From an uncultured virus (IMG/VR IMGVR_UViG_3300030103_005758) (lineage: Duplodnaviria; Heunggongvirae; Uroviricota; Caudoviricetes): a stretch of DNA of 20,000 nt. The position numbers were made by a program, and so were the translations under genes. The stretch lies in IMG/VR virus record IMGVR_UViG_3300030103_005758. One strand, given 5' to 3'. This document shows, piece after piece, positions 917 through 19,225 of this stretch. The notes beneath the pieces are model-generated. The model was not told the DNA's origin. It worked only from the letters and a program-made list of their open reading frames with translations, and ran no database searches. Within the stretch, counting starts at the first letter, position 1. The number at the start of each line of letters is the position of its first letter.

Positions 917-1420
917 ATGAAAAAATCAAACGTACCTTTTGTAAATGAAGTAGAAGATTTTAATAATTTAATGTCTAAACCAAATAATTATACACCTACT
1001 ATTCCTGAAAAAAAAGAATGGCAATTTGTATATGACTTTGTTTTAGAAGAATTAGAAGAATATAAAGAAGCATGTGAAAAGGGAGACATTGTAGAAATAT
1101 TAGATGCTTTATGTGATATAGCTTATGTATCTTTAGGAAATGGTACTATGCTTCATGGCCTAAAAGATAAAATATGGCCAGCTTATCAGGAAGTTCAGGC
1201 ATCAAATATGTCAAAGGCATGTAAAACTGTAAACGAAGCTATTGAAACTACTCTTAAAAGATCTGAGGAACAAGGGGAACCTTGTCATTGGGAACAAGTA
1301 GGCGATATGTATATTGTGTATAGAACACGTGATCGTAAAGTAATGAAATCACTTACTTACTTTAGACCCGATCTAAAACAATTCTTTACCGATGAAGAAA
1401 TTACTAACAGTACTAAGTAA
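917..1420 (+). CDS. All-alpha NTP pyrophosphohydrolase (MazG/PRA-PH-like)
   Basis: EELEEY...EILDALCDIAYV acidic metal-binding motif and EVQASNMSK, typical of this phage/bacterial family. Confidence 0.8.
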   Translation: MKKSNVPFVNEVEDFNNLMSKPNNYTPTIPEKKEWQFVYDFVLEELEEYKEACEKGDIVEILDALCDIAYVSLGNGTMLHGLKDKIWPAYQEVQASNMSKACKTVNEAIETTLKRSEEQGEPCHWEQVGDMYIVYRTRDRKVMKSLTYFRPDLKQFFTDEEITNSTK

Positions 1421-2702
1421 AGGAACCCTCCCCTTTATTATTGCATTCTCTGCCCTGTCAGTTAGTGCTTCAGCCGCTTTCTATTCAGTTAGCGGTTTAA
1501 GTAAACTATTTGCTGGGGCTTCATTTGAAGTAATTATTATGGCTGGTTCATTAGAAGTAGCTAAATTAGTTACTGCCTCATTATTATATCAATATTGGGA
1601 CAAGATAAATAAAATTCTTAGAACCTATTTAATTATAGCAACTATTATACTTGTATTAGTAACTAGTATGGGTATTTATGGTTTTTTAAGTGCTGCTTAT
1701 CAGGAGACATACCAAAAATTATCTATTAATGAAAATAGAATAGAATTTTTAGACCAAAAAAGAGAATTTTACCAACAAGATGTAACTAGATATGATGATG
1801 AGTTAGCAAGAATATCTGGAAATATCTCAACTCTATCTAATGCTAGAGCAACCTCAATCCAAGTTAGAGATACTACTTCATCTACAGGGGTTAGAAATAC
1901 TATTTCAACTGCCGAGCTAAGATTAGCTCAAAGTAGAATAGAAGTTGAAGAAAAAAATAGAAATGATGTTCAAGCTAGAAGAGAAATAGCAGCTGATAGT
2001 TTGCAAAAATATCAACTTGAAATATTAGACCTAGAAAATGATACCGAAATAACAGGTGAGTTAGGTCCATTACAATATCTATCAGGTTTAACTGGTACCC
2101 CAATGGATAAAATAATTAACTGGTTATTATTAGTAATTATTTTTGTATTTGACCCATTAGCTATATCTTTAGTAGTTGCTGCTAACTTTGCGTTTGCTCA
2201 GGCTTTTCCTAAAAAAGAAGAAGATTTAATTTTAGATTTACCTGATTTTGATCCTTTTCCTAGTGATTCGGAAGCAGAACTTTATCCCGAAGAAGAAGAA
2301 GAAAAAAAAGTAAATATAAATGATTGGGATATAGAAGAAGCAGAAAAAAGAATGGATATTATAGGTCAAAATGGTAATGAAGGATTACATTATGATGATA
2401 CGGAAATAAAAGAATATATTGCAACTGCAGAAGATAAAATTATGGCTGCTACTAAATCTATTATTGAAAAACAAAAAATAGAAGATAATAAATTAAAAGA
2501 TAAATTGGATGCTGCTAATAAAGAAATAAATGAATTAGATAGATCTAGTTTAAAAATAATTGATTCTATAAAACATATTAATGATTATTTAAAAATTCAT
2601 GCACCTTATTATGATAATCAAGGAATAGCTCTTGATAATATAAAACTTGGCTTTGCCGAAGAGGATGATTATATTGACGATGATAATAGTAAAATATATT
2701 AA
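1392..2702 (+). CDS. Membrane protein: about 3 N-terminal TM helices, long coiled coil, further TM segment and acidic C-terminal tail; function unknown
   Basis: Hydrophobic segments at about aa 14-34, 40-65, 78-100 and 241-270; heptad-like region at aa 105-215; D/E-rich tail. Confidence 0.7.
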   Translation: MKKLLTVLSKGTLPFIIAFSALSVSASAAFYSVSGLSKLFAGASFEVIIMAGSLEVAKLVTASLLYQYWDKINKILRTYLIIATIILVLVTSMGIYGFLSAAYQETYQKLSINENRIEFLDQKREFYQQDVTRYDDELARISGNISTLSNARATSIQVRDTTSSTGVRNTISTAELRLAQSRIEVEEKNRNDVQARREIAADSLQKYQLEILDLENDTEITGELGPLQYLSGLTGTPMDKIINWLLLVIIFVFDPLAISLVVAANFAFAQAFPKKEEDLILDLPDFDPFPSDSEAELYPEEEEEKKVNINDWDIEEAEKRMDIIGQNGNEGLHYDDTEIKEYIATAEDKIMAATKSIIEKQKIEDNKLKDKLDAANKEINELDRSSLKIIDSIKHINDYLKIHAPYYDNQGIALDNIKLGFAEEDDYIDDDNSKIY

Positions 2703-2704
2703 AA

Positions 2705-3295
2705 ATGATTGGTTTTCCTGAGTTTCAATTTACAAAACCTACATATATTCATCAAGAAGAAAATTTTTTTACTGGTGAAGAAGTAGATAAAATATTAAAT
2801 GATTTAAAAGATGTATCTTATGAAAGGGGTGCAACAGGTGATTTTAATTCAAATAAAGATTCTTTATCACTTCAGATACGAAAAAGTAATATAAAGTGGA
2901 TTCCACATGAAGAAAAATTTCATTGGTTATATGATAAACTATCAGCCCAAATTCATTTAATAAATTCTTTTACTTGGAAATTTAATCTTAATAATAGTTT
3001 TGAACACATTCAATACACTGAATATGATTCAAAAGAAAAAGGACAATATAATTGGCATGTAGATGTAGGAGAAGGAATGTCTTGTTTTAGAAAAATTTCA
3101 ATTTCAATTCAACTTTCAAATGCTAGTGAATATGATGGGGGAGAATTTAGAATTTTTAACCAAAAAGGTCCAAGTCCTAAATCTAGAGGAACTGCAATTA
3201 TTTTTCCTTCTTTTATTCCCCATAAAGTTACACCCGTAACTAGAGGAAATAGGAAATCTTTAGTATTGTGGGTTGGTGGTAGTCCTTATAAATAA
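2705..3295 (+). CDS. 2OG-Fe(II) oxygenase (prolyl-4-hydroxylase/PKHD-like)
   Basis: YNWHVD (HxD), RKISISIQLS, YDGGEF, FPSFIPHKVTPVTRGNRKSLVLW (distal His and Arg). Confidence 0.9.
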   Translation: MIGFPEFQFTKPTYIHQEENFFTGEEVDKILNDLKDVSYERGATGDFNSNKDSLSLQIRKSNIKWIPHEEKFHWLYDKLSAQIHLINSFTWKFNLNNSFEHIQYTEYDSKEKGQYNWHVDVGEGMSCFRKISISIQLSNASEYDGGEFRIFNQKGPSPKSRGTAIIFPSFIPHKVTPVTRGNRKSLVLWVGGSPYK

Positions 3296-3298
3296 TTT

Positions 3299-5035
3299 AT
3301 GTATAAAAAAATATACGAGCAAGGTAGAGGAGAAAATAAACATTTAATACATCTTTGGACAGACGAGGGTTACGAAAAGATTGAATGGAACAACTATGCT
3401 TATAAAGAATGTTCGCCTAATGATGCAGAATTTAAAGGTTTGAAAGGTGAACCACTTCGTAAAACACACACTTGGGATAGAAAAACCCCTAAACTCCACT
3501 TTAGTGATATCTCAGCTCACCAAAAATTCCTTATAGAAAAATATGGTATTGACGATGAACCTTCTACTTCACATAAGGAGGTTTTTTTTGATATCGAGTG
3601 TGAGATGGGAGGAGCATTGACAGAAGAATATATTTCTAATGCACCTAAGCCAATTACTTCTATTGCTTGGTATGATAAACAAGCAGATTGGTGGTCAATC
3701 GTTATTTTAGATAAAAAAGGTCAATTAAAACATACTAAAACTAAAAATAAAGAAATTATACCTTTACCACATGAGGCAGATCTATTAGATACATTTTTAA
3801 ATAAAATGGAAGAAATTCAACCAGATATGTTAATTGGGTATAATAGTGACTATTTTGATATTCCTTATTTATACTATAGAATGTGTAATGTGTTGGGAGA
3901 AACAGATGCAAAAAGATTATCCCCTATAGGAATAGTTAAATACAAAAAGAATAATCAATATTGGTATAAAAAAGACCAATTTGTAGATATAGCAGGTGTT
4001 GAATCTCTTGATTATATGAGATTACATAAAAAATATAGTTGGGAGGATGAACCAAGTTGGAAGTTAGATTCTATTGGAGAAAAATATGCTGGTATAAATA
4101 AAATTGAATATGATGGTTCTTTAGATAGATTATTTGAAGAGGATATACATAAATTTATTCAATATAACTTTGTTGATGTTGAAATATTAGTTGAATTAGA
4201 TAAAAAATTACAATATATAGCTTTAACAAAAAATTTAGCCCATAAAGGTAAAGTAAAATATAGTGAAGTGTATGCTTCATCTAAAATCCATGATGGTGCT
4301 ATCTCAGCTTACCTATTATCTCAGGGAATAATACCCCCAGGACGCCCTAAGGGGGAAAGTAAATTAAATTATGCTGGTGGTTACTTATTTTGCCCTAAAG
4401 CAGGGTTATACAAATATATGTTTGATGAAGATTTAACATCACTATATCCTTCTATTATAATGACTTTAAATATAGGTAGAGAAACTATTACAGATACATT
4501 ACCCGAAAAATTAGAAGATTTTGGTCCTTATGGTGGTAAATCTGATCGAAATAACTATCTAGGTTTAGGTGATTTAAAAGAAATGGATCCAGATGATGAA
4601 ATTAGAGTTATGGATCCTAATGAAAATATTCAAAACACAACTGTAGGTAAAGTAATTGAAGTAATAGAAAAGAATAATTTTTCAATAGCGGCAAATGGAA
4701 CCTTTTTTAGAACTGATAAACAATCAGTATTATCTACTATTTTAAATAAATGGTTTGATGAAAGGGTCATTTATAAAAATAGAATGAAGCACTGTTACCA
4801 AAAGGGTGATAATGAAGGTGGTGCTAAAAATCATTTACTACAATATACAATGAAAATTTTACTGAATTCTTTATATGGAGCTACTGCCTTACCATCATTT
4901 AGATATGGTTTACCAAAATCTATACTAAGTGAAGCAATTACATTATCAGGGTGGAGAATCATACAAGAATCTGCATTAGTTGCTAATACACATATGAATA
5001 AAGTTTTAAGGAATGAAATAAAGTTAGCATTATAA
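3299..5035 (+). CDS. DNA polymerase family B, N-terminal part (3'-5' exonuclease, palm motif A, fingers motif B)
   Basis: ExoI FFDIECE, ExoII GYNSDYFDIPY, ExoIII YNFVDV, motif A DLTSLYPSII, motif B KILLNSLYG, then EAITLSG. Stops before motif C. Confidence 0.95.
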   Translation: MYKKIYEQGRGENKHLIHLWTDEGYEKIEWNNYAYKECSPNDAEFKGLKGEPLRKTHTWDRKTPKLHFSDISAHQKFLIEKYGIDDEPSTSHKEVFFDIECEMGGALTEEYISNAPKPITSIAWYDKQADWWSIVILDKKGQLKHTKTKNKEIIPLPHEADLLDTFLNKMEEIQPDMLIGYNSDYFDIPYLYYRMCNVLGETDAKRLSPIGIVKYKKNNQYWYKKDQFVDIAGVESLDYMRLHKKYSWEDEPSWKLDSIGEKYAGINKIEYDGSLDRLFEEDIHKFIQYNFVDVEILVELDKKLQYIALTKNLAHKGKVKYSEVYASSKIHDGAISAYLLSQGIIPPGRPKGESKLNYAGGYLFCPKAGLYKYMFDEDLTSLYPSIIMTLNIGRETITDTLPEKLEDFGPYGGKSDRNNYLGLGDLKEMDPDDEIRVMDPNENIQNTTVGKVIEVIEKNNFSIAANGTFFRTDKQSVLSTILNKWFDERVIYKNRMKHCYQKGDNEGGAKNHLLQYTMKILLNSLYGATALPSFRYGLPKSILSEAITLSGWRIIQESALVANTHMNKVLRNEIKLAL

Positions 5036-5063
5036 TATTTACAATCACAATAATTTTAAAAAT

Positions 5064-6593
5064 ATGAATATATCAATTATAGGAGGAGGTACAGCAGGTT
5101 GGTTATCTGCTCTTCATCTAAATAAAATAAATCCAACAGCTGATATTTCTTTAATTGAATCTAAAGATATAGGAATAGTAGGAGTTGGTGAAGGAGCAGT
5201 TCCTCTTTTTGGGGATATGTTATTAGATCTTAATATAGACATTATTGATTTTGTTAATAGTGTTGACGGTACTTTTAAATTAGGGATTTCTTTTGAAGGT
5301 TGGAAAAATTTAGATCATAAATTTTTATATGGGTTTCCTAATTTTAATAGTAATGATGTAGCTAATTTTGAAAAAACTAAATTTGGTTCACAGAAATATG
5401 ATATATATCCTATTTTTGCAAATATGATAGCTAATTCTCAAGATTGTAATATAATGCAAAATTCAATTTTAAGTTACTTAAATAAAGTTCCTTTTACTTT
5501 TGATGAAGAATCTAAAAATGGTATCACCCAAGATGGAATTTCTCACGTATCTTTCCATTTTGATGCCTACAAAGCAGCTCAGTATTTTAGAAAAATTTCA
5601 GAATCTAGAGGTATAAAAAGAATTGAAGGAAAAGTTATTGATTTTAAATCTTCTAAAGACCAAAATATAAAAAGTATTATTACTGAAGATAAAAAAGAAC
5701 ATAAATGTGATTTTGTTTTTGATTGTACAGGGTTTGCTAAATTAATTATAGGTAAGCACTTTAAATCAAAATGGACTAGCTATAAAAGCCACTTAACTAC
5801 TAATGAAGTTATAAGTTTTAGATTAAAGTATAAAGAAAATGAAGAAGTATTTCCTTATACTAAGTCGATTACAATGAAAAATGGTTGGATGTGGCAGATT
5901 CCATTACAAAGTAGAATTGGGGCTGGGTATGTTTATGATAATAGATACATTACTGAATCTCAAGCTAAAGAAGAAGTTGAAGAATTTTTAGGTGAAGAGA
6001 TAGAAATATTAAAAAAAATTAATTTTGAACCTGGAATTTTTGAAGAGGGATGGATTAAAAATTGTGTATCAATAGGTCTTTCTAGTGCCTTTGTAGAACC
6101 TTTAGAATCTACTTCTATAATGTTTACTATTTTGCAATTAAGATTTTTTAAAAGTAAAGATTTATTAGAACCAAATGAATTACTTCAAAAAAGATATAAT
6201 AAATATCAAACAAAATCATTTAAATCAATAATTGATTTAATTCAATTACATTATTTGTGTGATAGAAATGATACTAAATTTTGGAAAGATAGAAAAAAAT
6301 TACCTATAACAACTCCTTTACAAAAACGTTTAAATGATTTTAAAAAATATCCTCTATCAGATTCAACATTTTTTGATGGTGTATGGGGGGCTTTAGGGTT
6401 TTTTGTAGTAGGATATGAAAGTAGTGTTAAAAATTTTCCTAAAAAACTCTACCAATTTTATAATAAAAAGCATAATTTTGATGGATTATTAAAAAATTGG
6501 ATTAAAGATTATAAACAATATTTTGATAATAAACTACCTAAATACTTTAAACATAAAGATTTATTAGATTATTTTAAAACAATAAAACCATGA
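5064..6593 (+). CDS. Flavin-dependent (tryptophan) halogenase-like protein
   Basis: GGGTAGW FAD-binding motif, GVGEG, GTFKLGI (position of the catalytic Lys in PrnA), DCTGF, GWMWQIP (WxWxIP) and FVEPLEST. Confidence 0.88.
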   Translation: MNISIIGGGTAGWLSALHLNKINPTADISLIESKDIGIVGVGEGAVPLFGDMLLDLNIDIIDFVNSVDGTFKLGISFEGWKNLDHKFLYGFPNFNSNDVANFEKTKFGSQKYDIYPIFANMIANSQDCNIMQNSILSYLNKVPFTFDEESKNGITQDGISHVSFHFDAYKAAQYFRKISESRGIKRIEGKVIDFKSSKDQNIKSIITEDKKEHKCDFVFDCTGFAKLIIGKHFKSKWTSYKSHLTTNEVISFRLKYKENEEVFPYTKSITMKNGWMWQIPLQSRIGAGYVYDNRYITESQAKEEVEEFLGEEIEILKKINFEPGIFEEGWIKNCVSIGLSSAFVEPLESTSIMFTILQLRFFKSKDLLEPNELLQKRYNKYQTKSFKSIIDLIQLHYLCDRNDTKFWKDRKKLPITTPLQKRLNDFKKYPLSDSTFFDGVWGALGFFVVGYESSVKNFPKKLYQFYNKKHNFDGLLKNWIKDYKQYFDNKLPKYFKHKDLLDYFKTIKP

Positions 6594-6937
6594 AATACGA
6601 AGCAGAAAGTAGACCTTGGGGAATGTATGAAGTTTTATTAGATTCAGATGAATGTAAAGTAAAAAGAATTACAGTTGCTCCAGATTCAAAACTATCATAT
6701 CAATATCACCATAAAAGACAAGAACAATGGACGGTAATTAAAGGAAATTTAACTATCATTTTAGATGATGAAAAAGTTTTTAGATCACCTGGAGAATCAA
6801 TAAAAATTCCATTAGGAGCTAGACATAGAGCTTGGAATGAAACAGATGAATTAGTACAATTTATAGAAGTTCAAACCGGAACCTATTTTGGTGAGGATGA
6901 TATAGTAAGAATAGAAGACGATTATAATAGAAAATAA
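6590..6937 (+). CDS. Cupin, mannose-6-phosphate isomerase type II C-terminal-like (ManC C-domain)
   Basis: RPWGMY, KVKRITV, LSYQYHHKRQEQW, EVQTGTYFGEDDIVRIEDDY. Confidence 0.9.
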   Translation: MKYEAESRPWGMYEVLLDSDECKVKRITVAPDSKLSYQYHHKRQEQWTVIKGNLTIILDDEKVFRSPGESIKIPLGARHRAWNETDELVQFIEVQTGTYFGEDDIVRIEDDYNRK

Positions 6938-6939
6938 AT

Positions 6940-7203
6940 ATGGCATTAAAAAAACAATCAATAAGACAAGGAGTTTATGTTTTAATAGATGGAGTTAACG
7001 CTTCTAAAGAAGAACTTATTACATTAAGCGAAACATGGACCGAAAAAAAAGAAGTATTTTTTAGAAAAATGCTTCAACAAGGAGGTAATTTTAGAATGGA
7101 TGGAAAAGATTTTATAGTTAAAATTAGAGAAAATCTTCAACTTAGATCAGATGGAACTAAAGATGGGGGAGTAGTTACAATCCCAGGAGGAAGAAGTTTT
7201 TAA
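6940..7203 (+). CDS. Hypothetical 87-aa protein, translationally coupled (TAATG) to the PolB C-terminal gene
   Basis: The ORF fills the gap exactly and its stop overlaps the next start; no motif recognised. Confidence 0.7.
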   Translation: MALKKQSIRQGVYVLIDGVNASKEELITLSETWTEKKEVFFRKMLQQGGNFRMDGKDFIVKIRENLQLRSDGTKDGGVVTIPGGRSF

Positions 7204-8126
7204 TGAAACACTTAGAGAACACCCCTTGGTATATTTGTAATGAAAATGATGAGAATCTATGTGCTTATGTAGATACTGATTCAAATTATTTTAATGCAGA
7301 ACCATTACTTAATCATTTGTATCCTAACTTTGAAGAATTATCTGATGAAGAAAAAGATTTAAAATTAGAACAAATTGCTTTAAAATACCAGGATATCATT
7401 ACTGATCATTATAATTTATTAGCTAAAGAATGTTTTAATGTTGATAAACATAGATTAGAAATGAAAACCGAGTGTGTTATTCGTTCAGCTTATTTTAGAG
7501 CCAATAGACGTTATGCCCAATGGATTACAAAACAAGAAGGTATAACTAAAGAAACATTAGATGTTAAGGGTTTAGAATATAAAAAATCTAATTTTCCAAA
7601 ATTATTTGGTACATTTTTTAAAAATATATTAGAAGATGTTTTAAAGGGTACTGAGCAGGATGAAATTGATACCCGTATTTTAAATTTTAAGAAAAAGATA
7701 TTAACAGAAATACCTATTGAACAATTAGGTAATCCAACAGGTGTAAAAACATTAAATAAATACACCGAACGTAAACCAGTTGGGGGAGAGGCATTTACTG
7801 TTATAAAAAAAGGTGCACCCGCTGCTGTTAGAGCAACAATTAAGTATAATGATTTACTTAGATATTGGAAATTAGATAGTAAACATTCACCAATTGTTCA
7901 AGGTGATAAAGTTAAATGGATCTATTTAAAGAAAAATCCATACAATATTGAGGCATTAGCTTATCTTGATTTTGATATGCCTGATAAAATTAAAGAATTT
8001 TTAGATAAATTCGCAGACAAAGAAAAAGTTTTTGATACTATATTATTAAATAAATTAGAAGGATTTTATGATGATTTAGGTTGGAGCTTAAATACAAACC
8101 CTTATGTAAACCAATTTTTTATATGA
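7203..8126 (+). CDS. DNA polymerase family B, C-terminal part (motif C, palm and thumb)
   Basis: YVDTDSNYF (motif C), RRYA, DVKGLEYKKS, GDKVKWIYLK: the remaining PolB motifs. Confidence 0.95.
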   Translation: MKHLENTPWYICNENDENLCAYVDTDSNYFNAEPLLNHLYPNFEELSDEEKDLKLEQIALKYQDIITDHYNLLAKECFNVDKHRLEMKTECVIRSAYFRANRRYAQWITKQEGITKETLDVKGLEYKKSNFPKLFGTFFKNILEDVLKGTEQDEIDTRILNFKKKILTEIPIEQLGNPTGVKTLNKYTERKPVGGEAFTVIKKGAPAAVRATIKYNDLLRYWKLDSKHSPIVQGDKVKWIYLKKNPYNIEALAYLDFDMPDKIKEFLDKFADKEKVFDTILLNKLEGFYDDLGWSLNTNPYVNQFFI

Positions 8127-8845
8127 TTTATATTTTTGATATAGATGGGACACTAACCCCCAGTAGAAACAAAATGGATAAAAATTTCCATGATTTTTTT
8201 ATGGACTTTGTTAAGATCCATAGAGTATGGCTAATCTCAGGTAGTGACCATACTAAAACAATAGAACAAATAGGTGTTGACTTATGGACAAATGTAGAAA
8301 AAGCTTATCAATGTTCTGGTAATCAACTTTTTCAAAGAGGTTCTTTAATTAGAACTAGTGATTGGGAATTACCTATAGCAACTAAATGGTGTTTAGAAAA
8401 ATTCTTAGAACAGTCTAAATACCCACATAGATATGGAAACCATATCGAAACTAGACCAGGTATGGTTAATTTCTCCATTGTGGGAAGACAATGTACTCAA
8501 GAACAAAGAGAAGAATACTTTAAATGGGATAATGAACATAAAGAAAGAGTTGAATTTACTAAAGAATTAAAAGAAAGATATCTTGGTTTAGATGCTGTAG
8601 TAGGTGGTGAAATTAGTATTGACATTTATCCAAGAGGTAAAGATAAAGGACAAATCGTAGAAGAATTAGATGATAATTTTATGTTTTTTGGAGATAAATT
8701 ATCACTAGGTGGCAATGATTATCCTATTAAACATGCTTCACAACTTAAACAACTAGAAGGAAATGAATTTTTCCATGTTAGAGGTTGGAAAGACACAAGA
8801 AATATATTAACTTCCATAATACAAACAAACGCAGGAGTAGTATGA
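8123..8845 (+). CDS. HAD-IIB phosphomannomutase, eukaryotic PMM/Sec53-like
   Basis: FDIDGTLTPSR, SGSD, IETRPGMVNFSIVGR, GGEISIDIYPRGKDK, FFGDKLSLGGNDYPI match PMM motifs. Start moved to the ATG at 8123 (ATGA overlap with the PolB stop). Confidence 0.85.
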   Translation: MIYIFDIDGTLTPSRNKMDKNFHDFFMDFVKIHRVWLISGSDHTKTIEQIGVDLWTNVEKAYQCSGNQLFQRGSLIRTSDWELPIATKWCLEKFLEQSKYPHRYGNHIETRPGMVNFSIVGRQCTQEQREEYFKWDNEHKERVEFTKELKERYLGLDAVVGGEISIDIYPRGKDKGQIVEELDDNFMFFGDKLSLGGNDYPIKHASQLKQLEGNEFFHVRGWKDTRNILTSIIQTNAGVV

Positions 8846-9561
8846 AAAAAAGTCATATAGTAAGTAATATACAAAAATATTTTTTAGGTGGTTTATCTAA
8901 AGGAGTTATTTGGAAAATACAAAATAACCAAGCAGTTATTGAATTTACTACAGAAACAAAAGATACTGTAGGAAAATTATTTTTTAATATAGATCTAGAT
9001 GAGTGTGAAATTGGTATAAATAATACTGATGCTTTATTACGTTTACTAAGTATAACAGATGAAGAGTTACAATTAGAATTAGATACCAAAGAAACAGGAT
9101 TACCTACTAAATTAAGAATTCAAGATAAAAAATATGATTTAGATTATAATTTAAGTGATCCTAAGATTATTGAAAAAGTACCTAATGTACAAGAAATAGA
9201 TTATGATTTTACTTTTAAACTAAATGATGAATTTATTAGTAGCTTTTTAAAAGCACACAATGCATTAGAAAAAACAAATGAATTCACTTTAAATACAGCT
9301 ACTACTCCACAAGGGGAAAATGTTGTAGAACTAGTAATAGGAGAGAGAGAAAGACACGCTAATAAGATTAAATTCACTGAACCTGCTGAATTTGAAACAG
9401 CAAGTGATTTATTACCATTTTCAGCAATTGTAATTAGAGAAATACTTTCAGCTAATAAGGGTAGTGAAGGTTCGGCATCTGTAAGTAATAAAGGATTATT
9501 AAAAATTTCATTTAATACAGATGAAAGTTTAGTAGAATATTTTGTTGTAAGACAGCAATGA
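8842..9561 (+). CDS. Sliding clamp (T4 gp45/PCNA-like processivity factor)
   Basis: About 239 aa, acidic, alternating beta/alpha pattern ending in GLLKISF...VEYFV; sits in the PolB/clamp-loader neighbourhood. Start at the ATGA overlap (8842) with GGAG upstream. Confidence 0.7.
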   Translation: MKKSHIVSNIQKYFLGGLSKGVIWKIQNNQAVIEFTTETKDTVGKLFFNIDLDECEIGINNTDALLRLLSITDEELQLELDTKETGLPTKLRIQDKKYDLDYNLSDPKIIEKVPNVQEIDYDFTFKLNDEFISSFLKAHNALEKTNEFTLNTATTPQGENVVELVIGERERHANKIKFTEPAEFETASDLLPFSAIVIREILSANKGSEGSASVSNKGLLKISFNTDESLVEYFVVRQQ

Positions 9562-10115
9562 TAGAAAAACGTATAAAAGTTTATGATAATTTATTTTCTA
9601 GTCAATTAGAAGATATTATTGAAAAATTATGTTTAACTCAACTTCCTTATTATTATACCCCTAATATTGCTACTGAACAACACACTATATTATCTCCTGG
9701 TTTTTCCCATTTTTTTATTAATTCCTTATCAAAACCCCATTCTGAAAAATATACTCCCTTTTTTAATAATATATTATATACTTTATCAAATAAATTATCT
9801 ATTGTAGTAGAACAAATAATAGCAGGTAGAGTATTCATGCATTTACCTTCTCCTAATCCCGGAGCTGATACTATTCATACAGATTTAGACACTCCTCATT
9901 GGGTAGCACTTTATTATATCAATGATAGTGATGGTGATACTATATTTTTTGATAATAATGAAAATGAAATTAAAAGGGTATCTCCTAAAAAAGGTAGAAT
10001 TGCTTTTTTTGATGGCTCCATCCCACATTGTAGTTCTAGACCTTCTAAAAGTACACGAGTTATAGTTAATTTTGATTTTAATGGTACATTTTTTGGAGAG
10101 GAAAAAAAGAATTAG
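9558..10115 (+). CDS. 2OG-Fe(II) oxygenase (phage type)
   Basis: IHTD (HxD), LYYINDSDGDTIFF, PKKGRIAFFDGSIPH, RVIVNF. Confidence 0.85.
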   Translation: MIEKRIKVYDNLFSSQLEDIIEKLCLTQLPYYYTPNIATEQHTILSPGFSHFFINSLSKPHSEKYTPFFNNILYTLSNKLSIVVEQIIAGRVFMHLPSPNPGADTIHTDLDTPHWVALYYINDSDGDTIFFDNNENEIKRVSPKKGRIAFFDGSIPHCSSRPSKSTRVIVNFDFNGTFFGEEKKN

Positions 10116-10205: not shown

Positions 10206-10619
10206 ATGAATACATTTATTTATGAACGTACACCGTTCGACATTTTAATTAGAAATTTTTTCCAAGACGCAAGCACATATTCTCCGCTTGCAGAAACCAA
10301 AGTTCCACATCCAGTAGATATTTACACTTCAGATAAAGGATTATCCTTTGATATCGCTTGTACGGGAATTAGTAAAAAAGATATTGAATTAAACATTCAA
10401 GACAATCTTTTAAAAATCAATTATAATAAACCAGAAGAAGATAAAGATGATAAAGACTATATCCATAGGGGTATTGCTAAAAGATCATTTAATCTAGGAT
10501 GGAAAATTGATAATAAATTTGATTTATCTAAAGCTACAGCTAGCTATAATGATGGGTTATTATCAATTATTATACCATTCTCAAAGGGATCAGAATTAAA
10601 AACTCTGCAAATTAAGTAA
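10206..10619 (+). CDS. Small heat-shock protein, Hsp20/alpha-crystallin family (IbpA-like)
   Basis: PVDIY, IACTGISKKDI, YIHRGIAKRSF, ASYNDGLLSIIIP. Confidence 0.92.
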   Translation: MNTFIYERTPFDILIRNFFQDASTYSPLAETKVPHPVDIYTSDKGLSFDIACTGISKKDIELNIQDNLLKINYNKPEEDKDDKDYIHRGIAKRSFNLGWKIDNKFDLSKATASYNDGLLSIIIPFSKGSELKTLQIK

Positions 10620-10622
10620 AAA

Positions 10623-10647
10623 AAGTTCGCCCTAGAGCTTGGTTTTT
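10623..10647 (+). terminator. Terminator-like hairpin after hsp20; its loop is complementary to the 5' leader loop
   Basis: AAGTTC[GCCCTA]GAGCTT, followed by GGTTTTT and preceded by an A run. Confidence 0.5.
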
Positions 10648-10669
10648 ACGTGTATTTTTCGTATATTTA
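10639..10669 (+). promoter_or_regulatory. Bacteroidota-type promoter for the orf93-groES-groEL unit (TTG-N20-TATATTTA)
   Basis: TTG at 10639-10641 and TATATTTA at 10662-10669; same spacing as the hsp20 promoter. Confidence 0.65.
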
Positions 10670-10697
10670 CGGCAATAATCAGTTATAAAACACACAT

Positions 10698-10979
10698 ATG
10701 GCAAATCCAAATTTTAAAGGTAGACCTGTTGGATCAGGTAAAAATACATTTATAGAAGACCCATTATTAGGGGATTTTAAAATAGTAATTGATGAATACA
10801 GTTATAATGTATTTGATATTACTAAAAATAAAACTATAGGTTTTTATTCAACATTAGAACAATCAGTTTTAGCAATTGCTAGTAAACAAATGTTAGAAGA
10901 TAGAACTTATAGTTTAACAGAATTCGCTAAAGAATTTAAAGAAACACATTTAAAACTTAAAGAAGCAATTTTAAAATAA
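10698..10979 (+). CDS. Hypothetical 93-aa protein
   Basis: ORF downstream of a promoter and coupled to groES by TAATG; N-terminal KGRPVGS resembles an AT-hook-like motif. Confidence 0.7.
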   Translation: MANPNFKGRPVGSGKNTFIEDPLLGDFKIVIDEYSYNVFDITKNKTIGFYSTLEQSVLAIASKQMLEDRTYSLTEFAKEFKETHLKLKEAILK

Positions 10980-11269
10980 TGAGTAAATTAAGACCAGTTA
11001 ATGGAAACGTTATCCTTAGACCTATAGAGGAAGAGGAGCAAATGGCGGGAAATATTATTATTCCTGACATGGGTAAAGAAAGACCCGAAATGGGAGAAAT
11101 TATAGCAATTTCAAATGTTTATAATTTTAATAAAGGTGAATATGCACCTTCAACATTAGAAGTTGGAATGAAAGTCTTAATCCCAAAAATGGGTGCACAG
11201 GCTATAACCATTGAAGGAGAAGAATATTATATAACAGCACAAAATTCAGTGCTATCAATCGTAGAATAA
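10979..11269 (+). CDS. groES: Co-chaperonin GroES (Cpn10)
   Basis: LRPVNGNVIL, GNIIIPD mobile loop, KERPEMGEIIA, VGMKVL, IEGEEYYI; directly upstream of groEL. Confidence 0.92.
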   Translation: MSKLRPVNGNVILRPIEEEEQMAGNIIIPDMGKERPEMGEIIAISNVYNFNKGEYAPSTLEVGMKVLIPKMGAQAITIEGEEYYITAQNSVLSIVE

Positions 11270-12909
11270 TGACAGAAACAAGTTTCGGAACAGATTTAAA
11301 AAATAAGCTTTTAGAGGGAGTTCAAAAGTTAAATAATAGTGTAGCGTCAACATTAGGACCTGCAGGTAGAACAGTATTAATTAAAGAAGATACTGGTGAA
11401 ATTAAAGTAACTAAAGATGGTGTTACTGTAGCTAAAGCATTTAAGGAATTAGAAGATCAAACTGAATCTATAGGTGCAGAATTAGCTAAAAAAGTCTCTA
11501 CTAAATGTGCTAATGAGGTAGGAGATGGTACAACAACTTCAACAGTATTAGCTACTGCTATTTTAGAAGAGGGAATTAGACAAATTAATGATGGTTCTAA
11601 TCCTGTTAATATTAAAAAAGGTATAGATGAAGCTGTCACAACAGTAGTAAATAGACTAAAAGAAATGTCCACTGAAATTACTGAAGATACCCAAATTAAA
11701 GAAGTAGCAACTATATCAGGTAATAATGATGTTGAAATAGGTAATTTAATTTCTACTGCTTTAGATAAAGTTGGTAGAGATGGAATTGTTACTATTGAAG
11801 AATCTAAAACAGGTGAAACTTCATTAGAGATAGTTGAAGGTATGCAATTTGATAGAGGTTTTAAATCTCCTTATTTTGTCACGGATAATAATACAATGCA
11901 AGCTGTATTAGATGATCCTTATGTATTAATTTTTGATGGAAGAATTACACAAGCATCAGAATTAATTAATGTATTAAATAAAGCAAGTGGTGAATCTAAA
12001 CCTATTTTAATTGTAGCCGAAGATATTGATGGTGAGGCATTAGCAACATTAATTGTTAATAAAATGAGAGGTACTGTTAAAGCAGTAGCTGTTAAAGCAC
12101 CAGAATTTGGAGACAGAAGAACTATGGCTTTAGAAGATTTAGCTACAGTTACAGGTGGACAAGTTTTATCTAAAAATAAAGGACATAAACTTGATAAAAT
12201 GTCTCCTGTTCAATTTAATGAACTATTAGGTACAGCTAGAAAAGTAACAGTAGAAAAAGAAACTACTACTATTATAGACGGTAAAGGTGGAGAAGAAGCT
12301 ATTACTTCTAGAGCTGAAGAAATTAAAACACAACTTGATAATGCTAATTCTGCATTTGAAAAAGAAAAACTACAAGAAAGATTAGGTAAGCTAATTGGTG
12401 GTGTAGCAATTATTAATGTTGGTGGCAATTCAGAAATTGAAATTAGAGAAAAAAAAGATAGAGTAGAGGACGCATTATTTGCTACTAAAGCTGCTTTAGA
12501 TGAAGGTATTATAATAGGTGGAGGTACTGCTTTATTATATGCTGCAAATACTATTAATGTAATTTCTGAAAACAAAGATATAGCCATTGGTAGAAGAATT
12601 GTTAAATCAGCTATACAAGAGCCATTTTTAAAGATTTTAAATAATGCTGGTCATGAAACAAATGATGTTAGATTTGCATCTTACGGATTAAGTAGTGCCG
12701 ATCCTAATTTTTGGTTAGGATTAGATTATAAAAATCTAGAAATGGTTAATTTTAAAGAATTAGGTATAATTGACCCTAAAAAAGTAACTAGAATTGCATT
12801 AGAAAATGCTGCCTCAATAGCGGGTACTATTCTTACTACTGAATCTGTTGTTTATGAAAAAAGAACAGATAAAGAAGAAGAACCTAACCCAATGATGGGA
12901 ATGATGTAA
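11269..12909 (+). CDS. groEL: Chaperonin GroEL (Cpn60)
   Basis: TLGPAGR, TKDGVTVAK, GDGTTT, EGMQFDRGFKSPYF, KAPEFGDRR, EKLQERL, GGGTAL, and a Met/Gly tail. Confidence 0.97.
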   Translation: MTETSFGTDLKNKLLEGVQKLNNSVASTLGPAGRTVLIKEDTGEIKVTKDGVTVAKAFKELEDQTESIGAELAKKVSTKCANEVGDGTTTSTVLATAILEEGIRQINDGSNPVNIKKGIDEAVTTVVNRLKEMSTEITEDTQIKEVATISGNNDVEIGNLISTALDKVGRDGIVTIEESKTGETSLEIVEGMQFDRGFKSPYFVTDNNTMQAVLDDPYVLIFDGRITQASELINVLNKASGESKPILIVAEDIDGEALATLIVNKMRGTVKAVAVKAPEFGDRRTMALEDLATVTGGQVLSKNKGHKLDKMSPVQFNELLGTARKVTVEKETTTIIDGKGGEEAITSRAEEIKTQLDNANSAFEKEKLQERLGKLIGGVAIINVGGNSEIEIREKKDRVEDALFATKAALDEGIIIGGGTALLYAANTINVISENKDIAIGRRIVKSAIQEPFLKILNNAGHETNDVRFASYGLSSADPNFWLGLDYKNLEMVNFKELGIIDPKKVTRIALENAASIAGTILTTESVVYEKRTDKEEEPNPMMGMM

Positions 12910-13896: not shown

Positions 13897-14817
13897 ATGA
13901 TTAAAGATCACACTTTATTTACTGAAAAATTTCGACCAACTAATCCTAAAGATTATATTGGAAACGAAGTATTTAAATCAAGTTTAAACCAATGGATAGA
14001 ACAACAAGATATTCCACATATCTTATTGTATGGTCCCGCAGGTACAGGTAAAACTACAGCAGCTAAATTAATTATAACTAACCTAGATTGTGATTCAATT
14101 TATATCAATTGTTCAGATGAAAATGGTATAGATACAATTAGAGAAAAAGTTAAATCATTTGCTTCTGCTGCAACATTCCGCGAATTAAAAGTGGTTATAA
14201 TGGATGAAGCAGATTTCTTAACGATTAACGCACAAGCAGCATTACGTAATGTTATTGAAACATATTCTAAAACAACACGTTTTGTATTTACTTGTAATTA
14301 TATTGAACGTATAATTGATCCTATACAATCTAGAACATCAGTATTTGAAGTATTACCTCCTTCTAAATTAGAAGTGGCTAAACGTTGTGCTACTATTTTA
14401 GATGCAGAAGGCTGTAACCGTGCAACTGATGATATTGTAGAAATTGTAAATAAAACTTACCCTGATATTAGAAAAACATTAAACTTATTACAATCGTGTA
14501 TAGTTTATGATGTTGCAGGAACATTTTTACAATTAAATAAAGATATTGTTAATCAAAAACAATATACAGATCAAATTATTGATTTAATTAAATTAAAAGA
14601 TGCTAAGGCATTTAATCAAATTAGACAAATTGTAGCTGATTCAAATATAAGAGACTACAATGAATTATATAGAGCCTTATTCGAAAACCTAGATTCATTC
14701 CACAACCCAGTGTTAGGTACAATTATTATTGCCGAATCACAATATCAGTCTGTTATGGCTCCTGATAAAGAAATCACTTTCATGGGATGTATCGCAAATT
14801 TATTAAAAAATGGATAG
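13897..14817 (+). CDS. Clamp loader AAA+ ATPase subunit (RFC small subunit/T4 gp44-like)
   Basis: EKFRP, Walker A GPAGTGKTT, INCSDENGID, Walker B MDEAD, AQAALR, IIDPIQSR (SRC-like), PDIRK. Confidence 0.93.
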   Translation: MIKDHTLFTEKFRPTNPKDYIGNEVFKSSLNQWIEQQDIPHILLYGPAGTGKTTAAKLIITNLDCDSIYINCSDENGIDTIREKVKSFASAATFRELKVVIMDEADFLTINAQAALRNVIETYSKTTRFVFTCNYIERIIDPIQSRTSVFEVLPPSKLEVAKRCATILDAEGCNRATDDIVEIVNKTYPDIRKTLNLLQSCIVYDVAGTFLQLNKDIVNQKQYTDQIIDLIKLKDAKAFNQIRQIVADSNIRDYNELYRALFENLDSFHNPVLGTIIIAESQYQSVMAPDKEITFMGCIANLLKNG

Positions 14818-15070
14818 TACACAACAACCACAGATGAATCTAGATTTATCTAAAACAACCCCTATTGATACACCTTCAGGTGGAAAAATATGGCACACAG
14901 GGATGGTACTTAGAAAAGTATCTAAGTTCATAACTGGAACTCAAGAAGATGCTATTGTACCAATTACAATATTTTATGATCCTGAAACTAATGAAATATT
15001 AGAAGATACTTTACCTCAAGATTTAAGAGAAGAGTATGCAGGCACAAAATATAGAAAGATGCAAGATTAA
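14810..15070 (+). CDS. Hypothetical 86-aa protein in the clamp-loader operon
   Basis: Overlap-coupled ORF between the two clamp-loader genes. Confidence 0.7.
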   Translation: MDSTQQPQMNLDLSKTTPIDTPSGGKIWHTGMVLRKVSKFITGTQEDAIVPITIFYDPETNEILEDTLPQDLREEYAGTKYRKMQD

Positions 15071-15477
15071 TGACAATATTTGATTGGCTTAATGAAATAA
15101 GTTATAATAAAAGACCATGGTCTTCATTTAATAATGAGGATCGTGAATCTTTTAATTCATATATGATCAATCGATTTATATCAATGAAAAAGGATTATAT
15201 TGATTTTGTTAATACAATTCAAAAATATCCTATTAATAAAGAAACACTTTATAATTTTTATTGTAAAATAGTACCAAAAAGAAAAACATTTTTTAGATAT
15301 ATTAAACCTAAAAAAAGTACTTTAAATTCAAATTTAATTACTATTTTAGCTAAACATTTTGAATTAAGTGAAAGAGAGATAAAGGATAATTATCAATTAA
15401 TAGGAAAAGACTTATCAAAAATTATACTTCAAAATATAGGTATAGATGATAAACAAATTAAAAAATTATTAAAATGA
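15070..15477 (+). CDS. Clamp loader small subunit (T4 gp62-like)
   Basis: DWLNEI...YMINRFISM...FVNTI...YNFY...KRKTFFRYIK resembles the gp62-like pattern of marine T4-like phages; near the gp44-like gene. Confidence 0.7.
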   Translation: MTIFDWLNEISYNKRPWSSFNNEDRESFNSYMINRFISMKKDYIDFVNTIQKYPINKETLYNFYCKIVPKRKTFFRYIKPKKSTLNSNLITILAKHFELSEREIKDNYQLIGKDLSKIILQNIGIDDKQIKKLLK

Positions 15478-15695
15478 AACAAGAACTTTACGAAATGCTA
15501 AAAGCAGAAGCTATAGCAGATAAAAATAAAGCTTTATTAAGCTTAAATCTACTTACTAATCACCCCGCTGGAATTGGAGATCATTCTACAAAAGACTATT
15601 GGGATAATGCTACAGAATCACTTAAATTATTGGCTTCAGCAGAAGAAAGATTAGAAACGTTAGAAAAATATTTCGATACTAAGGAAATTATATAG
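15474..15695 (+). CDS. Hypothetical helical phage protein (PAGIGDHS motif)
   Basis: ATGA-coupled ORF predicted as two helices around a GIGDH turn. Confidence 0.7.
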   Translation: MKQELYEMLKAEAIADKNKALLSLNLLTNHPAGIGDHSTKDYWDNATESLKLLASAEERLETLEKYFDTKEII

Positions 15696-16321
15696 TGAAA
15701 GAAATTTACAGGGATTTTATTGGTATTTATGAAAATGCTTTTTCAAAAGAATATTGTCAATATTTAATAAATCTTGGTAAAAAAAACATATCAAATGCAA
15801 AAAGTAGAGCTAAGTCTCCTGACAATTTACCTCTTTTAATTTTTGATGATTTATCTTTTAATCTATCAGAGTATATTGATCAAAATACTAAAGAACATTT
15901 TTATAATACAGTTTCAAATCTTATAAAAACTTATATAGAAAAATATAAATGTCTTGAATATATTACTAGTTCGGGATATAATATAACAGATTTCAAATAT
16001 CAAATAACTAAACCATCACAAGGATATCATACTTGGCATTGTGAATATGATGCTTCAATCCCTAAAACGAATTTAAGATGGGGTGTATGGACTTTTTATT
16101 TAAATGATGTTGAAGAAGGGGGTGAAACTGAATTTTTATATCAAAGTTATAGATTAAAACCTAAAACTGGAACTTTTAGTATATTTCCTGCATATTATAC
16201 CCACACACATAGAGGAAACCCCCCTATATCTAATACTAAACATATTATAACCGGGTGGATTGAATACCCACCAGAATTTGTTAATAAAAATGAAAAAAAT
16301 GACAGCAAAAGAAATACTTAA
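15695..16321 (+). CDS. 2OG-Fe(II) oxygenase (phage type, HxE)
   Basis: GYHTWHCE, FYLNDVEEGGETEF, FPAYYTHTHRGNPP, KHIITGW; GTG start overlaps the previous TAG. Confidence 0.88.
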   Translation: MKEIYRDFIGIYENAFSKEYCQYLINLGKKNISNAKSRAKSPDNLPLLIFDDLSFNLSEYIDQNTKEHFYNTVSNLIKTYIEKYKCLEYITSSGYNITDFKYQITKPSQGYHTWHCEYDASIPKTNLRWGVWTFYLNDVEEGGETEFLYQSYRLKPKTGTFSIFPAYYTHTHRGNPPISNTKHIITGWIEYPPEFVNKNEKNDSKRNT

Positions 16322-17788: not shown

Positions 17789-19225
17789 ATGAGAGAGGGT
17801 TATTTACCAAAAGATCAAAGGAAAAAAATCCTGTTCCTTTGTGATGATATTCGTATGCATTCAGGTGTTGCTACAATGGCAAGAGAAATTGTAATAGGAA
17901 CCTGCCACAGGTATAATTGGGTTAACGTAGGAGCCGCAATTAATCATCCGGAAGTAGGAAAAAAATTAGATTTAAGCCAGGATACTGGTAATAGAGCAGG
18001 CGTTGAAGATGCTTCAGTATTTCTATATCCACAAAATGGGTATGGTGATACTACAATATTAAGACATTTTTTAGACCTTGAAAAACCAGATGCTGTATTT
18101 ATTTTTACTGATCCAAGATATTGGGAATGGTTATTCCAAATTGAAAATGAAGTTAGAGCAAAATGTCCATTAGCTTATTTAAATATTTGGGATGATCTAC
18201 CCGCACCTTTATATAATGAATCCTATTATGATTCATGTGATATGTTGTTAGGTATTTCAAAACAAACAGAAAATATTAATAGGCTAGTTTTAGGAGATAA
18301 AGCAAAAGATAAAATTATATCTTATGTACCTCATGGTATAAATGAAGAACAATTTTATCCAATTGATGAAAATCACGAAAAATGGAATGATCTTCAAACA
18401 GCTAAAAAACAACTATTTGGAGATGAAGAATATAAACATGTATTTTTCTTTAATTCAAGAAATATTAGAAGAAAAATGCCTTCTGATTTATTAGCTGCTT
18501 ATAAAATATTTAAAGAAAATTTACCCGAAGAAGAAAAAGATGATGTATGTTTAGTATTACATACCGCTCCAATAGATGGTAATGGTACTGATTTATATGC
18601 TGTTAGAGATTTATTATTAGGTCATGATAATAGTGTTAAATTCTCTACATCTAAATTATCTACAGAAGGTATGAATTATCTTTATAATTTAGCAGATGTA
18701 ACAGTCTTACCTTCTTCAAATGAAGGTTGGGGATTATCATTAACTGAATCAATGATGGCTGGAACTATGATAATTGCTAATGTTACAGGGGGAATGCAAG
18801 ATCAAATGAGATTTGAAGATGAAAATGGAGATTGGATTAAATTTGATGAAAATTTTCCTTCTAACCACTTTGGAACTTATAAAAAATGTGGAAAATGGGC
18901 TTTACCTATATTCCCATCCAACACAGCAATGGTAGGTTCACCTAAAACACCATACATTTGGGATGACAGATTAGATTTTAGAGAACTAGCAGATACATTA
19001 ATGCAGTCTTATAAAATGTCTAAAAAAGAAATTAAAGAAAGAGGATTAGCAGGAAGAGAATGGGTTACATCAGATGAATCTATGGCTTCAGCTAAAAATA
19101 TGAATAAAAATATTGTTAGTAATTTTGATAAATTATTTAAAACATGGAAACCACGTCCTAATTTTCACTTTAGTAAAATAGATGAATTACCAATAAAAAC
19201 ATTAACACATAAATTAGTATATTAG
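17789..19225 (+). CDS. Glycosyltransferase, GT-B fold (GT4-like)
   Basis: DDIRMHSGVA, YVPHG, NSRNIRRK, LYNLADVTVLPSSNEGWGLSLTESM (EX7E motif). Confidence 0.9.
   Translation: MREGYLPKDQRKKILFLCDDIRMHSGVATMAREIVIGTCHRYNWVNVGAAINHPEVGKKLDLSQDTGNRAGVEDASVFLYPQNGYGDTTILRHFLDLEKPDAVFIFTDPRYWEWLFQIENEVRAKCPLAYLNIWDDLPAPLYNESYYDSCDMLLGISKQTENINRLVLGDKAKDKIISYVPHGINEEQFYPIDENHEKWNDLQTAKKQLFGDEEYKHVFFFNSRNIRRKMPSDLLAAYKIFKENLPEEEKDDVCLVLHTAPIDGNGTDLYAVRDLLLGHDNSVKFSTSKLSTEGMNYLYNLADVTVLPSSNEGWGLSLTESMMAGTMIIANVTGGMQDQMRFEDENGDWIKFDENFPSNHFGTYKKCGKWALPIFPSNTAMVGSPKTPYIWDDRLDFRELADTLMQSYKMSKKEIKERGLAGREWVTSDESMASAKNMNKNIVSNFDKLFKTWKPRPNFHFSKIDELPIKTLTHKLVY

Follow-up and report, generated by a model that had tools for sequence, protein, structure and literature searches.

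Uncultured marine T4-like phages with a probable two-subunit family B DNA polymerase, its gene broken between motifs B and C and with changing accessory genes at the break

How does a phage make a replicative DNA polymerase from a gene that is cut in two, and what are accessory genes doing at the cut? The question is raised by a 20,000-nucleotide (nt) stretch of DNA from an uncultured virus of the Caudoviricetes (IMG/VR record IMGVR_UViG_3300030103_005758; "the window" below is this whole stretch), in which polB, the gene for a family B DNA polymerase (PolB), lies as two open reading frames (ORFs) with three other genes between them. An earlier note, made from the sequence alone, had read the locus as an intein-free, heterodimeric polymerase whose break point serves as an insertion site for accessory genes. 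Our analysis makes it very likely that the window encodes a replicative polymerase of the T4/RB69 type as two separately translated subunits, PolB-N and PolB-C, and we infer from their sequences that these assemble into a heterodimer with polymerase activity. The halves and their landmarks are the following (aa, amino acids).

3299..5035, + strand: polN, the N-terminal half of polB (PolB-N, 578 aa), with the N-terminal domain, the 3'-5' exonuclease, palm motif A, and the fingers with motif B
4424..4453, + strand: motif A, DEDLTSLYPS, polN aa 376-385, from the translation and aligned with RB69
4853..4879, + strand: motif B, KILLNSLYG, polN aa 519-527, from the translation
5009..5035, + strand: C-terminal tail of polN, RNEIKLAL, with the TAA stop; the upstream side of the break
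7203..8126, + strand: polC, the C-terminal half of polB (PolB-C, 307 aa), with the leader MKHLENTPWYIC..., the motif C hairpin, the rest of the palm, and the thumb
7266..7283, + strand: motif C, YVDTDS, polC aa 22-27, from the translation and aligned with RB69 YGDTDS

Unlike the single polypeptide of T4 or RB69 gp43, polB is here represented by two ORFs with stops and 2,167 nt between them, and motifs A and B on the one and motif C on the other were found exactly where the earlier note had located them. PolN matched the Pfam families DNA_pol_B_exo1 (PF03104, E 5.5e-17) and DNA_pol_B (E 2.8e-19, profile positions 23-204 of 453), as well as PHROG 262 "DNA polymerase" (E 2.2e-109, positions 17-569 of 856). 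PolC matched PHROG 262 from position 565 to 851 of 856 (E 2.9e-49), so that the comparison of both halves with polymerase profiles proposed by the note connects each of them to PHROG 262, and polN, though not polC, to Pfam DNA_pol_B above its cut-off. Since the two ORFs tile the PHROG 262 profile, no domain is missing across the pair, as the note had supposed. The catalytic residues were invariant in both of two 45-sequence alignments, A1 for polN and A2 for polC. In polN, they comprise D98 and E100 of the Exo I DxE motif (FDIECE), motif A residues D376, D378, S381, L382, Y383, and P384, and motif B from K519 to G527, which aligns around RB69 gp43 residue 560. In polC, invariance covers motif C (Y22, D24, T25, D26, and S27) and also M1, E5, P8, W9, and I11 of the leader.

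Between the halves lie three genes and, inside the last of them, a potential ribosome-binding site for polC.

5064..6593, + strand: FAD-dependent tryptophan-halogenase-like gene, 509 aa (PF04820, E 3.9e-97)
6590..6937, + strand: cupin of the mannose-6-phosphate isomerase C-terminal type, 115 aa (PF01050, E 7.3e-30)
6940..7203, + strand: orf87, 87 aa, a conserved small gene with no Pfam or PHROG family
7185..7190, + strand: AGGAGG, a Shine-Dalgarno-like site within the 3' part of orf87 and 12 nt ahead of the ATG of polC (direct sequence reading)

The note's inventory of a halogenase-like gene, a cupin, and an 87-aa ORF filling 2.17 kb thus stands, with Pfam matches for the first two and orf87 without a family. 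The genes are tightly packed: 28 nt separate polN from the halogenase gene, whose stop overlaps the cupin start as ATGA; 2 nt lie between the cupin gene and orf87; and the orf87 stop shares one base with the polC start (TAATG).

Where, then, is the polymerase cut? Residues 514-571 of polN aligned with residues 555-610 of RB69 gp43, and profile positions 11-188 of polC aligned with RB69 residues 608-791. These alignments place the cut near RB69 residue 610, in the surface loop that connects the helix following motif B with the strand running into motif C, the RB69 motif C aspartates being D621 and D623. The note had aligned the halves with T4 gp43, and the equivalent alignment with RB69 gp43 holds for both. 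PolN matched PHROG 2062 at positions 38-487 of 502 and continued into PHROG 1918 at positions 22-95, while polC matched PHROG 1918 only from position 91. Because polN reaches into PHROG 1918, the family of the C-half in the known fingertip split, the break lies about 75 profile positions downstream of that split. The note had stated that the split gp43s of some T4 relatives break in the fingers instead, and the known ones are indeed placed in the fingertip (PMC3061061). Two other statements of the note hold only partly. The short extra tails that it described on both halves are extra in comparison with RB69 or Microcystis phage Mel-JY01 but not in comparison with an intact sister gene described below (L083 and P0003); in the sister, the loop ahead of motif C equals the combined length of the tail and leader of the window, so the cut lies inside an already expanded loop and the tails are not additions. 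The strands bearing the catalytic aspartates are on separate polypeptides, as stated, with motif A on one and motif C on the other, but this is not special to the window, since it also applies to the fingertip splits and to the polymerase of PhiKZ (PMC13648687).

The same break was found well beyond the window. A scan of IMG/VR with polC gave 421 confirmed related stretches, the best 80 of which were kept and examined. Both sides of the junction were visible in 73 of them, and all 73 were split at the same residue, which answers the note's proposal to map the break point in related phage contigs. The N-halves mostly end in NKV[IL][KR]xE[IV]KLE[IL] followed by the stop, and the C-half starts with M[KI][HY][LI]E..PW.I[CV] in 79 of the 80 loci, the last one being cut by the contig end. 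What differs between loci is the gap, which takes the form of 62 distinct junction segments among the 73 loci.

Gap of -4 nt (ATGA overlap): 20 of 73 loci
Stop and start sharing one base: 3 of 73 loci
Gap of 200-300 nt: 18 of 73 loci
Gap of 300-700 nt: 15 of 73 loci
Gap of 0.7-1.6 kb: 12 of 73 loci
Gap of more than 1.6 kb, up to 5,938 nt: 5 of 73 loci

The ATGA overlaps and the three cases of base sharing establish that the split exists without any insert. Where the halves overlap as ATGA, a Shine-Dalgarno-like AAAGG ahead of polC is formed by the closing K-G codons of polN. An "open frame of 986 aa" in three relatives was rejected as a read-through figure, as direct translation gave many stops between the halves. 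Longer, unrelated N-half tails were seen in L015/L019/L020, L033/L058/L061, L071/L079, and L023 (for example, ...IERNISPRPYGI, ...SFSLGTSESLER, and ...TPDIKEQPRPMW, each before a stop); in L023, orf87 has apparently decayed and the polN frame continues into it.

Values of dN/dS were 0.04-0.17 for polN and 0.04-0.15 for polC (9 pairs each), which indicates that both halves are under strong purifying selection. An identical polC sequence was present on 11 contigs, the longest of 177 kb. In NCBI, members of the 90% cluster of polN are filed under a Verrucomicrobiales bin and a Schleiferiaceae bin as hypothetical proteins, their contigs being ∼170 kb long; these contigs are probably phage genomes binned into metagenome-assembled genomes (MAGs) and point to no reliable host.

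Neither chain carries a complete active site, so a working enzyme would have to combine the two. A complex prediction of polN with polC, run with custom alignments of the halves, gave an ipSAE of 0.78 (runs of 0.79, 0.78, and 0.78), the best of 3 controls reaching 0.00; the mark applied to this score is reached by 116 of 157 solved complexes and by 2 of 215 mismatched pairs. Contact agreement between runs was at least 91%, and partner pLDDT was at least 83. The predicted interface involves residues 360-390 and 550-578 of chain 1 and residues 1-13 and 16-36 of chain 2, with polN 360-390 packing on the polC motif C hairpin and polN 550-578 on polC 1-13. The prediction supports binding of the halves, with the proviso that it may express likeness only.

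In the arrangement that we propose, PolB-N would provide the N-terminal domain, the proofreading exonuclease, the motif A palm strand, and the whole fingers with motif B, and PolB-C the motif C hairpin, the remaining palm, and the thumb. The chains would complete the palm sheet between them and so be held together without a covalent bond, with the final helix of PolB-N and its tail packing on the PolB-C leader MKHLExTPWxIC, and neither RNA splicing nor protein splicing would take part. The PolB-C start would be coupled to the upstream gene, through TAATG and AGGAGG in the window and through ATGA and AAAGG in cargo-less relatives. We infer cotranscription across the gap, and likewise the manner in which the split arose, to which we return below.

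Several observations weigh against this interpretation. The polC score for Pfam DNA_pol_B was 15.4 bits, under the 23-bit cut-off, and polC as a single sequence had no match among PDB sequences at E <= 1e-5, the profile A2 being needed. Intact PolB structures have been solved, so the complex score may only reflect likeness or model memory. Counts of sigma-70-like promoters (39 found versus 47.9 expected), terminators (2 versus 1.6), and the T4 late-promoter word TATAAATA (5 versus 8.7) in the window were not above chance, so the operon structure is deduced from gene packing alone; the sole RNA evidence consists of contigs from RNA libraries, which possibly contain DNA. The survey of relatives took in the 80 best of the 421 related stretches. 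Finally, the search for a second polB covered the contigs of relatives, and 2 of 3 near-complete relatives carry an ORF of 425-429 aa with a weak family A polymerase-like C-terminal region (425 aa at 313-1590 of L087 in G003, and also in G004; 25 bits in Pfam against a cut-off of 34.3; PHROG 17, E 9.7e-9), which leaves room for a second polymerase activity. The low polC score, the PolA-like ORF, and the reach of the second-polB search are also what could be said for a split polB that is decaying or inactive, with replication left to the host or to a second phage polymerase. We hold this to be highly unlikely, given that dN/dS is 0.04-0.17 for both halves, that all catalytic motifs are invariant across 45 sequences, that the split is kept down to 45% identity among C-halves, and that clamp and clamp loader genes are kept alongside the split polB. 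Nor did the complete polB elsewhere in the genome, which the note had named as a refutation, come to light: the contigs of 5 relatives (3 of them 96-99% complete) contained no PHROG 262 match beyond the two halves in any of the 5, and no family A polymerase above the Pfam cut-off was found in the 3 near-complete relatives. The record nearest to the window, G001, is an 8.3-kb fragment without polB.

Alternatively, a single polypeptide might be made from the halves, be it through an intron that carries the cargo ORFs, through protein splicing in trans or in cis, or at the ribosome through bypass or frameshifting. Mobile elements do strike this part of related genes, with complete inteins in motifs B and C of L002 and, among the 150 representatives listed, nine C-fragments ending ...VHN/S before the extein (slashes mark splice junctions); moreover, the frames of the halves differ by one base at the ATGA loci. 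Gene 43B of the T4-related phage 25 is said, in work of Petrov from 2010, to hold a group I intron. However, no Hint/intein or endonuclease family was found with Pfam or PHROG in either half or in the window's gap genes, as the note had already reported from inspection; the tails of 8 and 21 aa lack the splice-junction residues, C/S for the N junction and HN-C/S/T for the C junction; and an Rfam E-value scan of window positions 4800-7500 gave 0 matches at E <= 1, hence no intron. No homing endonuclease was present among 24 gap-family representatives from the 73 relatives, only a small Smr domain at 2 loci. Stops lie in frame between the halves, polC opens with a conserved ATG of its own, preceded by a Shine-Dalgarno-like site, and the gap, whose length runs from -4 to 5,938 nt, holds conserved, selected coding genes, which together make a joined product extremely unlikely. 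The misassembly that the note had also named as a refutation, i.e., a chimera with cargo misplaced into an intact gene, would be in keeping with the metagenome-type data and with a halogenase that occupies the gap only in the window, but it can practically be dismissed: contigs from runs of other studies bridge every junction with 0 differences (X3 at 4834-6652 and 6902-7409; X9 at 4891-5569, 5866-6652, and 6902-7289), 13 runs hold at least half of the sampled window words and 20 runs from 14 studies hold some of them, and 73 independent contigs have the identical break. We also consider it very unlikely that the two products act separately, PolB-N as an exonuclease or incomplete polymerase and PolB-C in a new role, without an obligate heterodimer. 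Separate exonuclease and polymerase chains have been proposed for phiKZ-like phages (PMC3201878), and product stoichiometry would be uncontrolled where kilobases of cargo intervene. Nevertheless, with motif A and motif C on different chains neither active site is complete, the leader and tail are conserved to the same degree as the catalytic core, the predicted interface is the normal intramolecular packing of the palm, and the halves are always adjacent and co-oriented. A two-subunit polymerase remains our preferred explanation.

How did the split arise? Searching 1.84 billion representative proteins with polC yielded stand-alone C-halves with the same leader (P0001, P0002, P0005, and P0007), down to 45% identity, and also a full-length protein of 873 aa, P0003, at 53% identity. 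In a tree of 119 C-domains, the clade's 5 split representatives formed one branch (support 96), the sister of which was the intact P0003/P0004 (support 99). On L083, a P0003-related contig from IMG/VR, polB is uninterrupted (888 aa) and is followed by a 251-aa ORF at the clamp position (no family found) and then by GroES and a 545-aa ORF at the GroEL position, which is the gene order of the window. On this tree, the split is shown with a single origin and with an intact, syntenic sister lineage. It would have arisen once, after divergence from that lineage, and is now fixed, and the new intercistronic site would have become a busy dock for co-oriented, tightly packed accessory genes within the string of replication genes. 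Among other apparent splits, P0055 was confirmed as real. P0037 was set aside as unverified, its nearest contig (66% identity) carrying an intact 883-aa gene with a different loop; the other such representatives, some of which may be artefacts of gene calling, lie dispersed over the tree (19 changes for 19 rows) and were excluded from the count.

Breaks met in other PolB genes, described below, hint that the marine clade owes its split to an initial hit by a mobile element, an origin already proposed for the split of phage 25 (PMC2988022) and for the PolB of Methanobacteriales (PMC4104785). Motif C intein sites met in our searches were D/TDS and DTD/S, and independent intein-free splits were seen in two jumbo-phage lineages. 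A broader scenario, which we consider conceivable but rather improbable, is that the stretch leading into and through motif C is a recurrent fracture zone of T4-type PolB, struck repeatedly by mobile elements, where in the marine clade one hit was domesticated, the endonuclease was lost, and a dock co-expressing auxiliary genes was left; orf87 may then be as old as the split and may serve the two-piece polymerase as assembly factor or third subunit. Orf87 usually lies directly beside one half.

Other PolB genes with breaks or insertions in this region were met along the way. A published uncultured jumbo phage (L002, LR756508.1, positions 928-8852) has complete inteins in motif B (KILIN/C...Q/SVYG) and motif C (S...VVHN/TDS) and also a separate, intein-free split in the loop before motif C, with an N-half tail of ∼45 aa, a C-half leader MKTKKIKNIPESKLNQDGEKEYCVYTD, and four ORFs between the halves, one of them a dCMP deaminase. 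An unrelated viral contig of 285 kb (L085, 4325-7918) has its polB interrupted at that loop too; a GIY-YIG/NUMOD3 homing-endonuclease-like gene (6304-7020) separates the halves, and the C-half leader is MKIKKIEKGKQIDYINYIDTDS. In L086 (4287-7846), the N ORF ends in a 43-aa tail resembling that of L002 (...LMDGSKKQVGELTEDDDIVV and stop) and is followed by a NUMOD3 ORF; the polymerase frame resumes at ...TDSVFY without a start codon, with stops just upstream, and an Rfam E-value scan of L086 5900-7200 gave 0 matches. The library proteins P0017, P0019, P0021, P0036, and P0088 begin in the same odd way. The nine C-terminal PolB pieces mentioned above (P0032, P0043, P0081, P0098, P0099, P0107, P0138, P0139, and P0147) start with ∼40-60 aa ending ...HTFFANDILVHN/S and look like C-fragments of split inteins at DTD/S.

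What occupies the break changes from phage to phage. The + strand gap ORFs of the 73 relatives fall into 26 families, which by Pfam include PALP, a cytidylyltransferase, DUF6165, 2-oxoglutarate (2OG) oxygenases, DUF2452, and the small Smr domain (2 loci), and further a DegT aminotransferase with a formyltransferase, a PIG-L deacetylase, a C-methyltransferase, sugar epimerases/dehydratases, an FkbM methyltransferase, and GT2; judged by these families, the gap genes would serve mostly in sugar modification. Gaps longer than 1 kb are 94-100% coding, on the + strand. On a polN tree of 45 rows rooted with the intact sister, gap content requires at least 20 changes. The break is occupied in 50 of 73 loci, and the neighboring polC-clamp junction in 25 of 78. 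The note's view of the break as an insertion site is thus borne out by the 26 families, the range of gaps from -4 to 5,938 nt, and the number of changes, but not as a distinction of the break alone: the neighboring junction is variable too, which makes the break the busiest intergenic site in a plastic neighborhood.

The commonest gap resident is orf87, present in 41 of the 73 relatives and in the window; its presence requires 5 changes on the polN tree, and it occurs in all three main subclades. Its alignment (A3) has 11 invariant columns, and its dN/dS is 0.09-0.61. The AF2 model of orf87 has a pLDDT of 65.7 and found no Foldseek match in the PDB at E <= 0.001; a best ESM Atlas score of 0.83 is in the range reached by shuffled proteins and was not taken as a fold match. 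The cupin gene was found in the gap of 13 of the 73 relatives and the window, with dN/dS of 0.02-0.22, and the halogenase gene in the gap of the window only (0 of 73 relatives). A contig of run X17 joins position 5027 to position 6590 through AGTT and so drops the halogenase gene, restoring the polN tail ...NEIKLEL before the stop and the ATGA overlap with the cupin gene, as in L003 (95-97% identical). Because the X17 joint matches L003, the halogenase gene is a recent gain or loss between near-identical strains, a presence/absence polymorphism. The RNA-library contigs (X16 and X17) give next to no cover of the halogenase gene, contig parts without cover not being interpretable. L003, the closest relative of the window, has two 2OG-Fe(II) oxygenases in its polB gap (2543-3133 and 3408-3950).

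The surroundings of polB in the window include the following.

2705-3295, 9558-10115, and 15695-16321: three 2OG-Fe(II) oxygenase paralogues within the 20 kb
8123..8845, + strand: phosphomannomutase-like gene (PF03332, E 5.5e-30), directly 3' of polC, in the variable junction between polC and the clamp gene
8842..9561, + strand: gp45-like sliding clamp (PHROG 223 "processivity factor", E 6.2e-5)
10206-12909: Hsp20, GroES (10979-11269), and full GroEL (11269-12909), just 3' of the replication genes
13897-14817 and 15070-15477: clamp loader genes, downstream of the polymerase

With a G+C content of ∼28% and long ORFs almost all on the + strand, the window reads as the replication region of a T4-like phage. 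No close cultured phage is apparent for it: the closest matches in the phage collection were Microcystis phage Mel-JY01 at 37-39% identity and Pelagibacter phage HTVC008M at 38% (clamp loader). The clamp gene lies 3' of polC in 78 of the 80 relatives kept and 3' of the intact polB in Mel-JY01. A phosphomannomutase-like gene directly 3' of polC was seen in 9 of the 80 loci, all of them among the closest (L003-L011; L012 stops short). With the cupin gene in the gap and this gene after polC, two mannose-activation steps straddle the C-half of the polymerase. The intact sister L083 also has GroES (Cpn10) and the 545-aa ORF at the GroEL position, so that chaperonin genes occur with and without the split. 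Further genes of the window are a carbamoyltransferase fragment (3-893) and a glycosyltransferase-like gene (17789-19225).

Natural two-piece family B polymerases, including some with kilobases between the halves, are already known. In our literature search, which left subscription journals and supplements outside, we found no report of marine T4-like phages whose polymerase is divided between motifs B and C. New are the position of the break and its fixation in a marine clade, abundant and uncultured, whose syntenic sister keeps an intact gene, as well as the turnover of metabolic cargo, rather than selfish elements, in a polB gap. Fixation across a large clade means that a cut in the palm has been tolerated over long evolutionary time, which recommends the break as a candidate site for engineered two-piece polymerases. 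The intact sister, the bare ATGA split, the loci with one small gene, and the multi-kilobase islands form a natural series that shows how the interior of an essential core gene can become a hypervariable cargo site. In practice, any survey or completeness tool relying on polB/gp43 as its marker will score two truncated genes in these phages; public sources label polN as a family B polymerase subunit or as a hypothetical protein of MAG bins.

The nearest known counterparts are the split gp43s (43A/43B) of Aeromonas phages 44RR, 25, 31, and 65 and Acinetobacter phage 133 (PMC3061061), of which the gp43A and gp43B of phage 25 copurify and polymerise (PMC2988022). They share with the window a T4-type PolB encoded in two adjacent, co-oriented cistrons, without an intein and with motifs A and C on different chains, and their halves lie 2 bp to 3 kb apart (PMC3061061, PMC2988022). 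In contrast, their genes are cut at the fingertip, past motif A but ahead of motif B (PHROG 2062, 502 aa; PHROG 1918, 382 aa), whereas the break of the window falls just before motif C; and their gap holds an untranslated spacer, a homing endonuclease, or an intron, where the window's clade has changing metabolic cargo. The PolB of PhiKZ and other chimalliviruses consists of DNAP-N (gp82) and DNAP-C (gp50), an active, non-covalent 1:1 complex solved by cryo-electron microscopy (Basu et al. 2026 preprint, PMC13648687). There too, motif A is on the N chain and motif C on the C chain, and the split lies in an enlarged palm loop or insertion. The PhiKZ break, by contrast, follows motif A in a large palm-insertion domain, which leaves the fingers on the C chain, while in the window they are on the N chain; gp82 and gp50 are encoded by non-adjacent genes; and the enzyme is far larger (1369 aa).

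Like the split PolB of Methanothermobacter (Methanobacterium thermoautotrophicum), the window's polymerase is intein-free with a palm break close to motif C. A point ∼83 aa past Pfu residues 467/468 would presumably coincide with the DTD of motif C or come directly after it, rather than precede it. The archaeal break is put ∼83 aa C-terminal of Pfu 467/468, both subunits are needed, and the halves are 85 kb apart (PMC3061061), versus 2.2 kb in the window. Fractured genes with split inteins and a free-standing homing endonuclease, (Dassa et al. 2009, PMC2677866), beside which we place the PolB of N. equitans, resemble the locus in that an essential replication gene in marine phage-like DNA is divided into two neighboring genes with foreign ORFs between them. 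They differ in that neither the window nor the 24 gap-family representatives contain intein halves or an endonuclease, and the halves cannot be ligated. Lastly, the T4 superfamily is known for hyperplastic regions, with g43 surrounded by less conserved ORFs (Comeau et al. 2010, PMC2908710); the variable accessory genes described here likewise lie between conserved core genes, except that the island sits inside what was formerly a single core gene.

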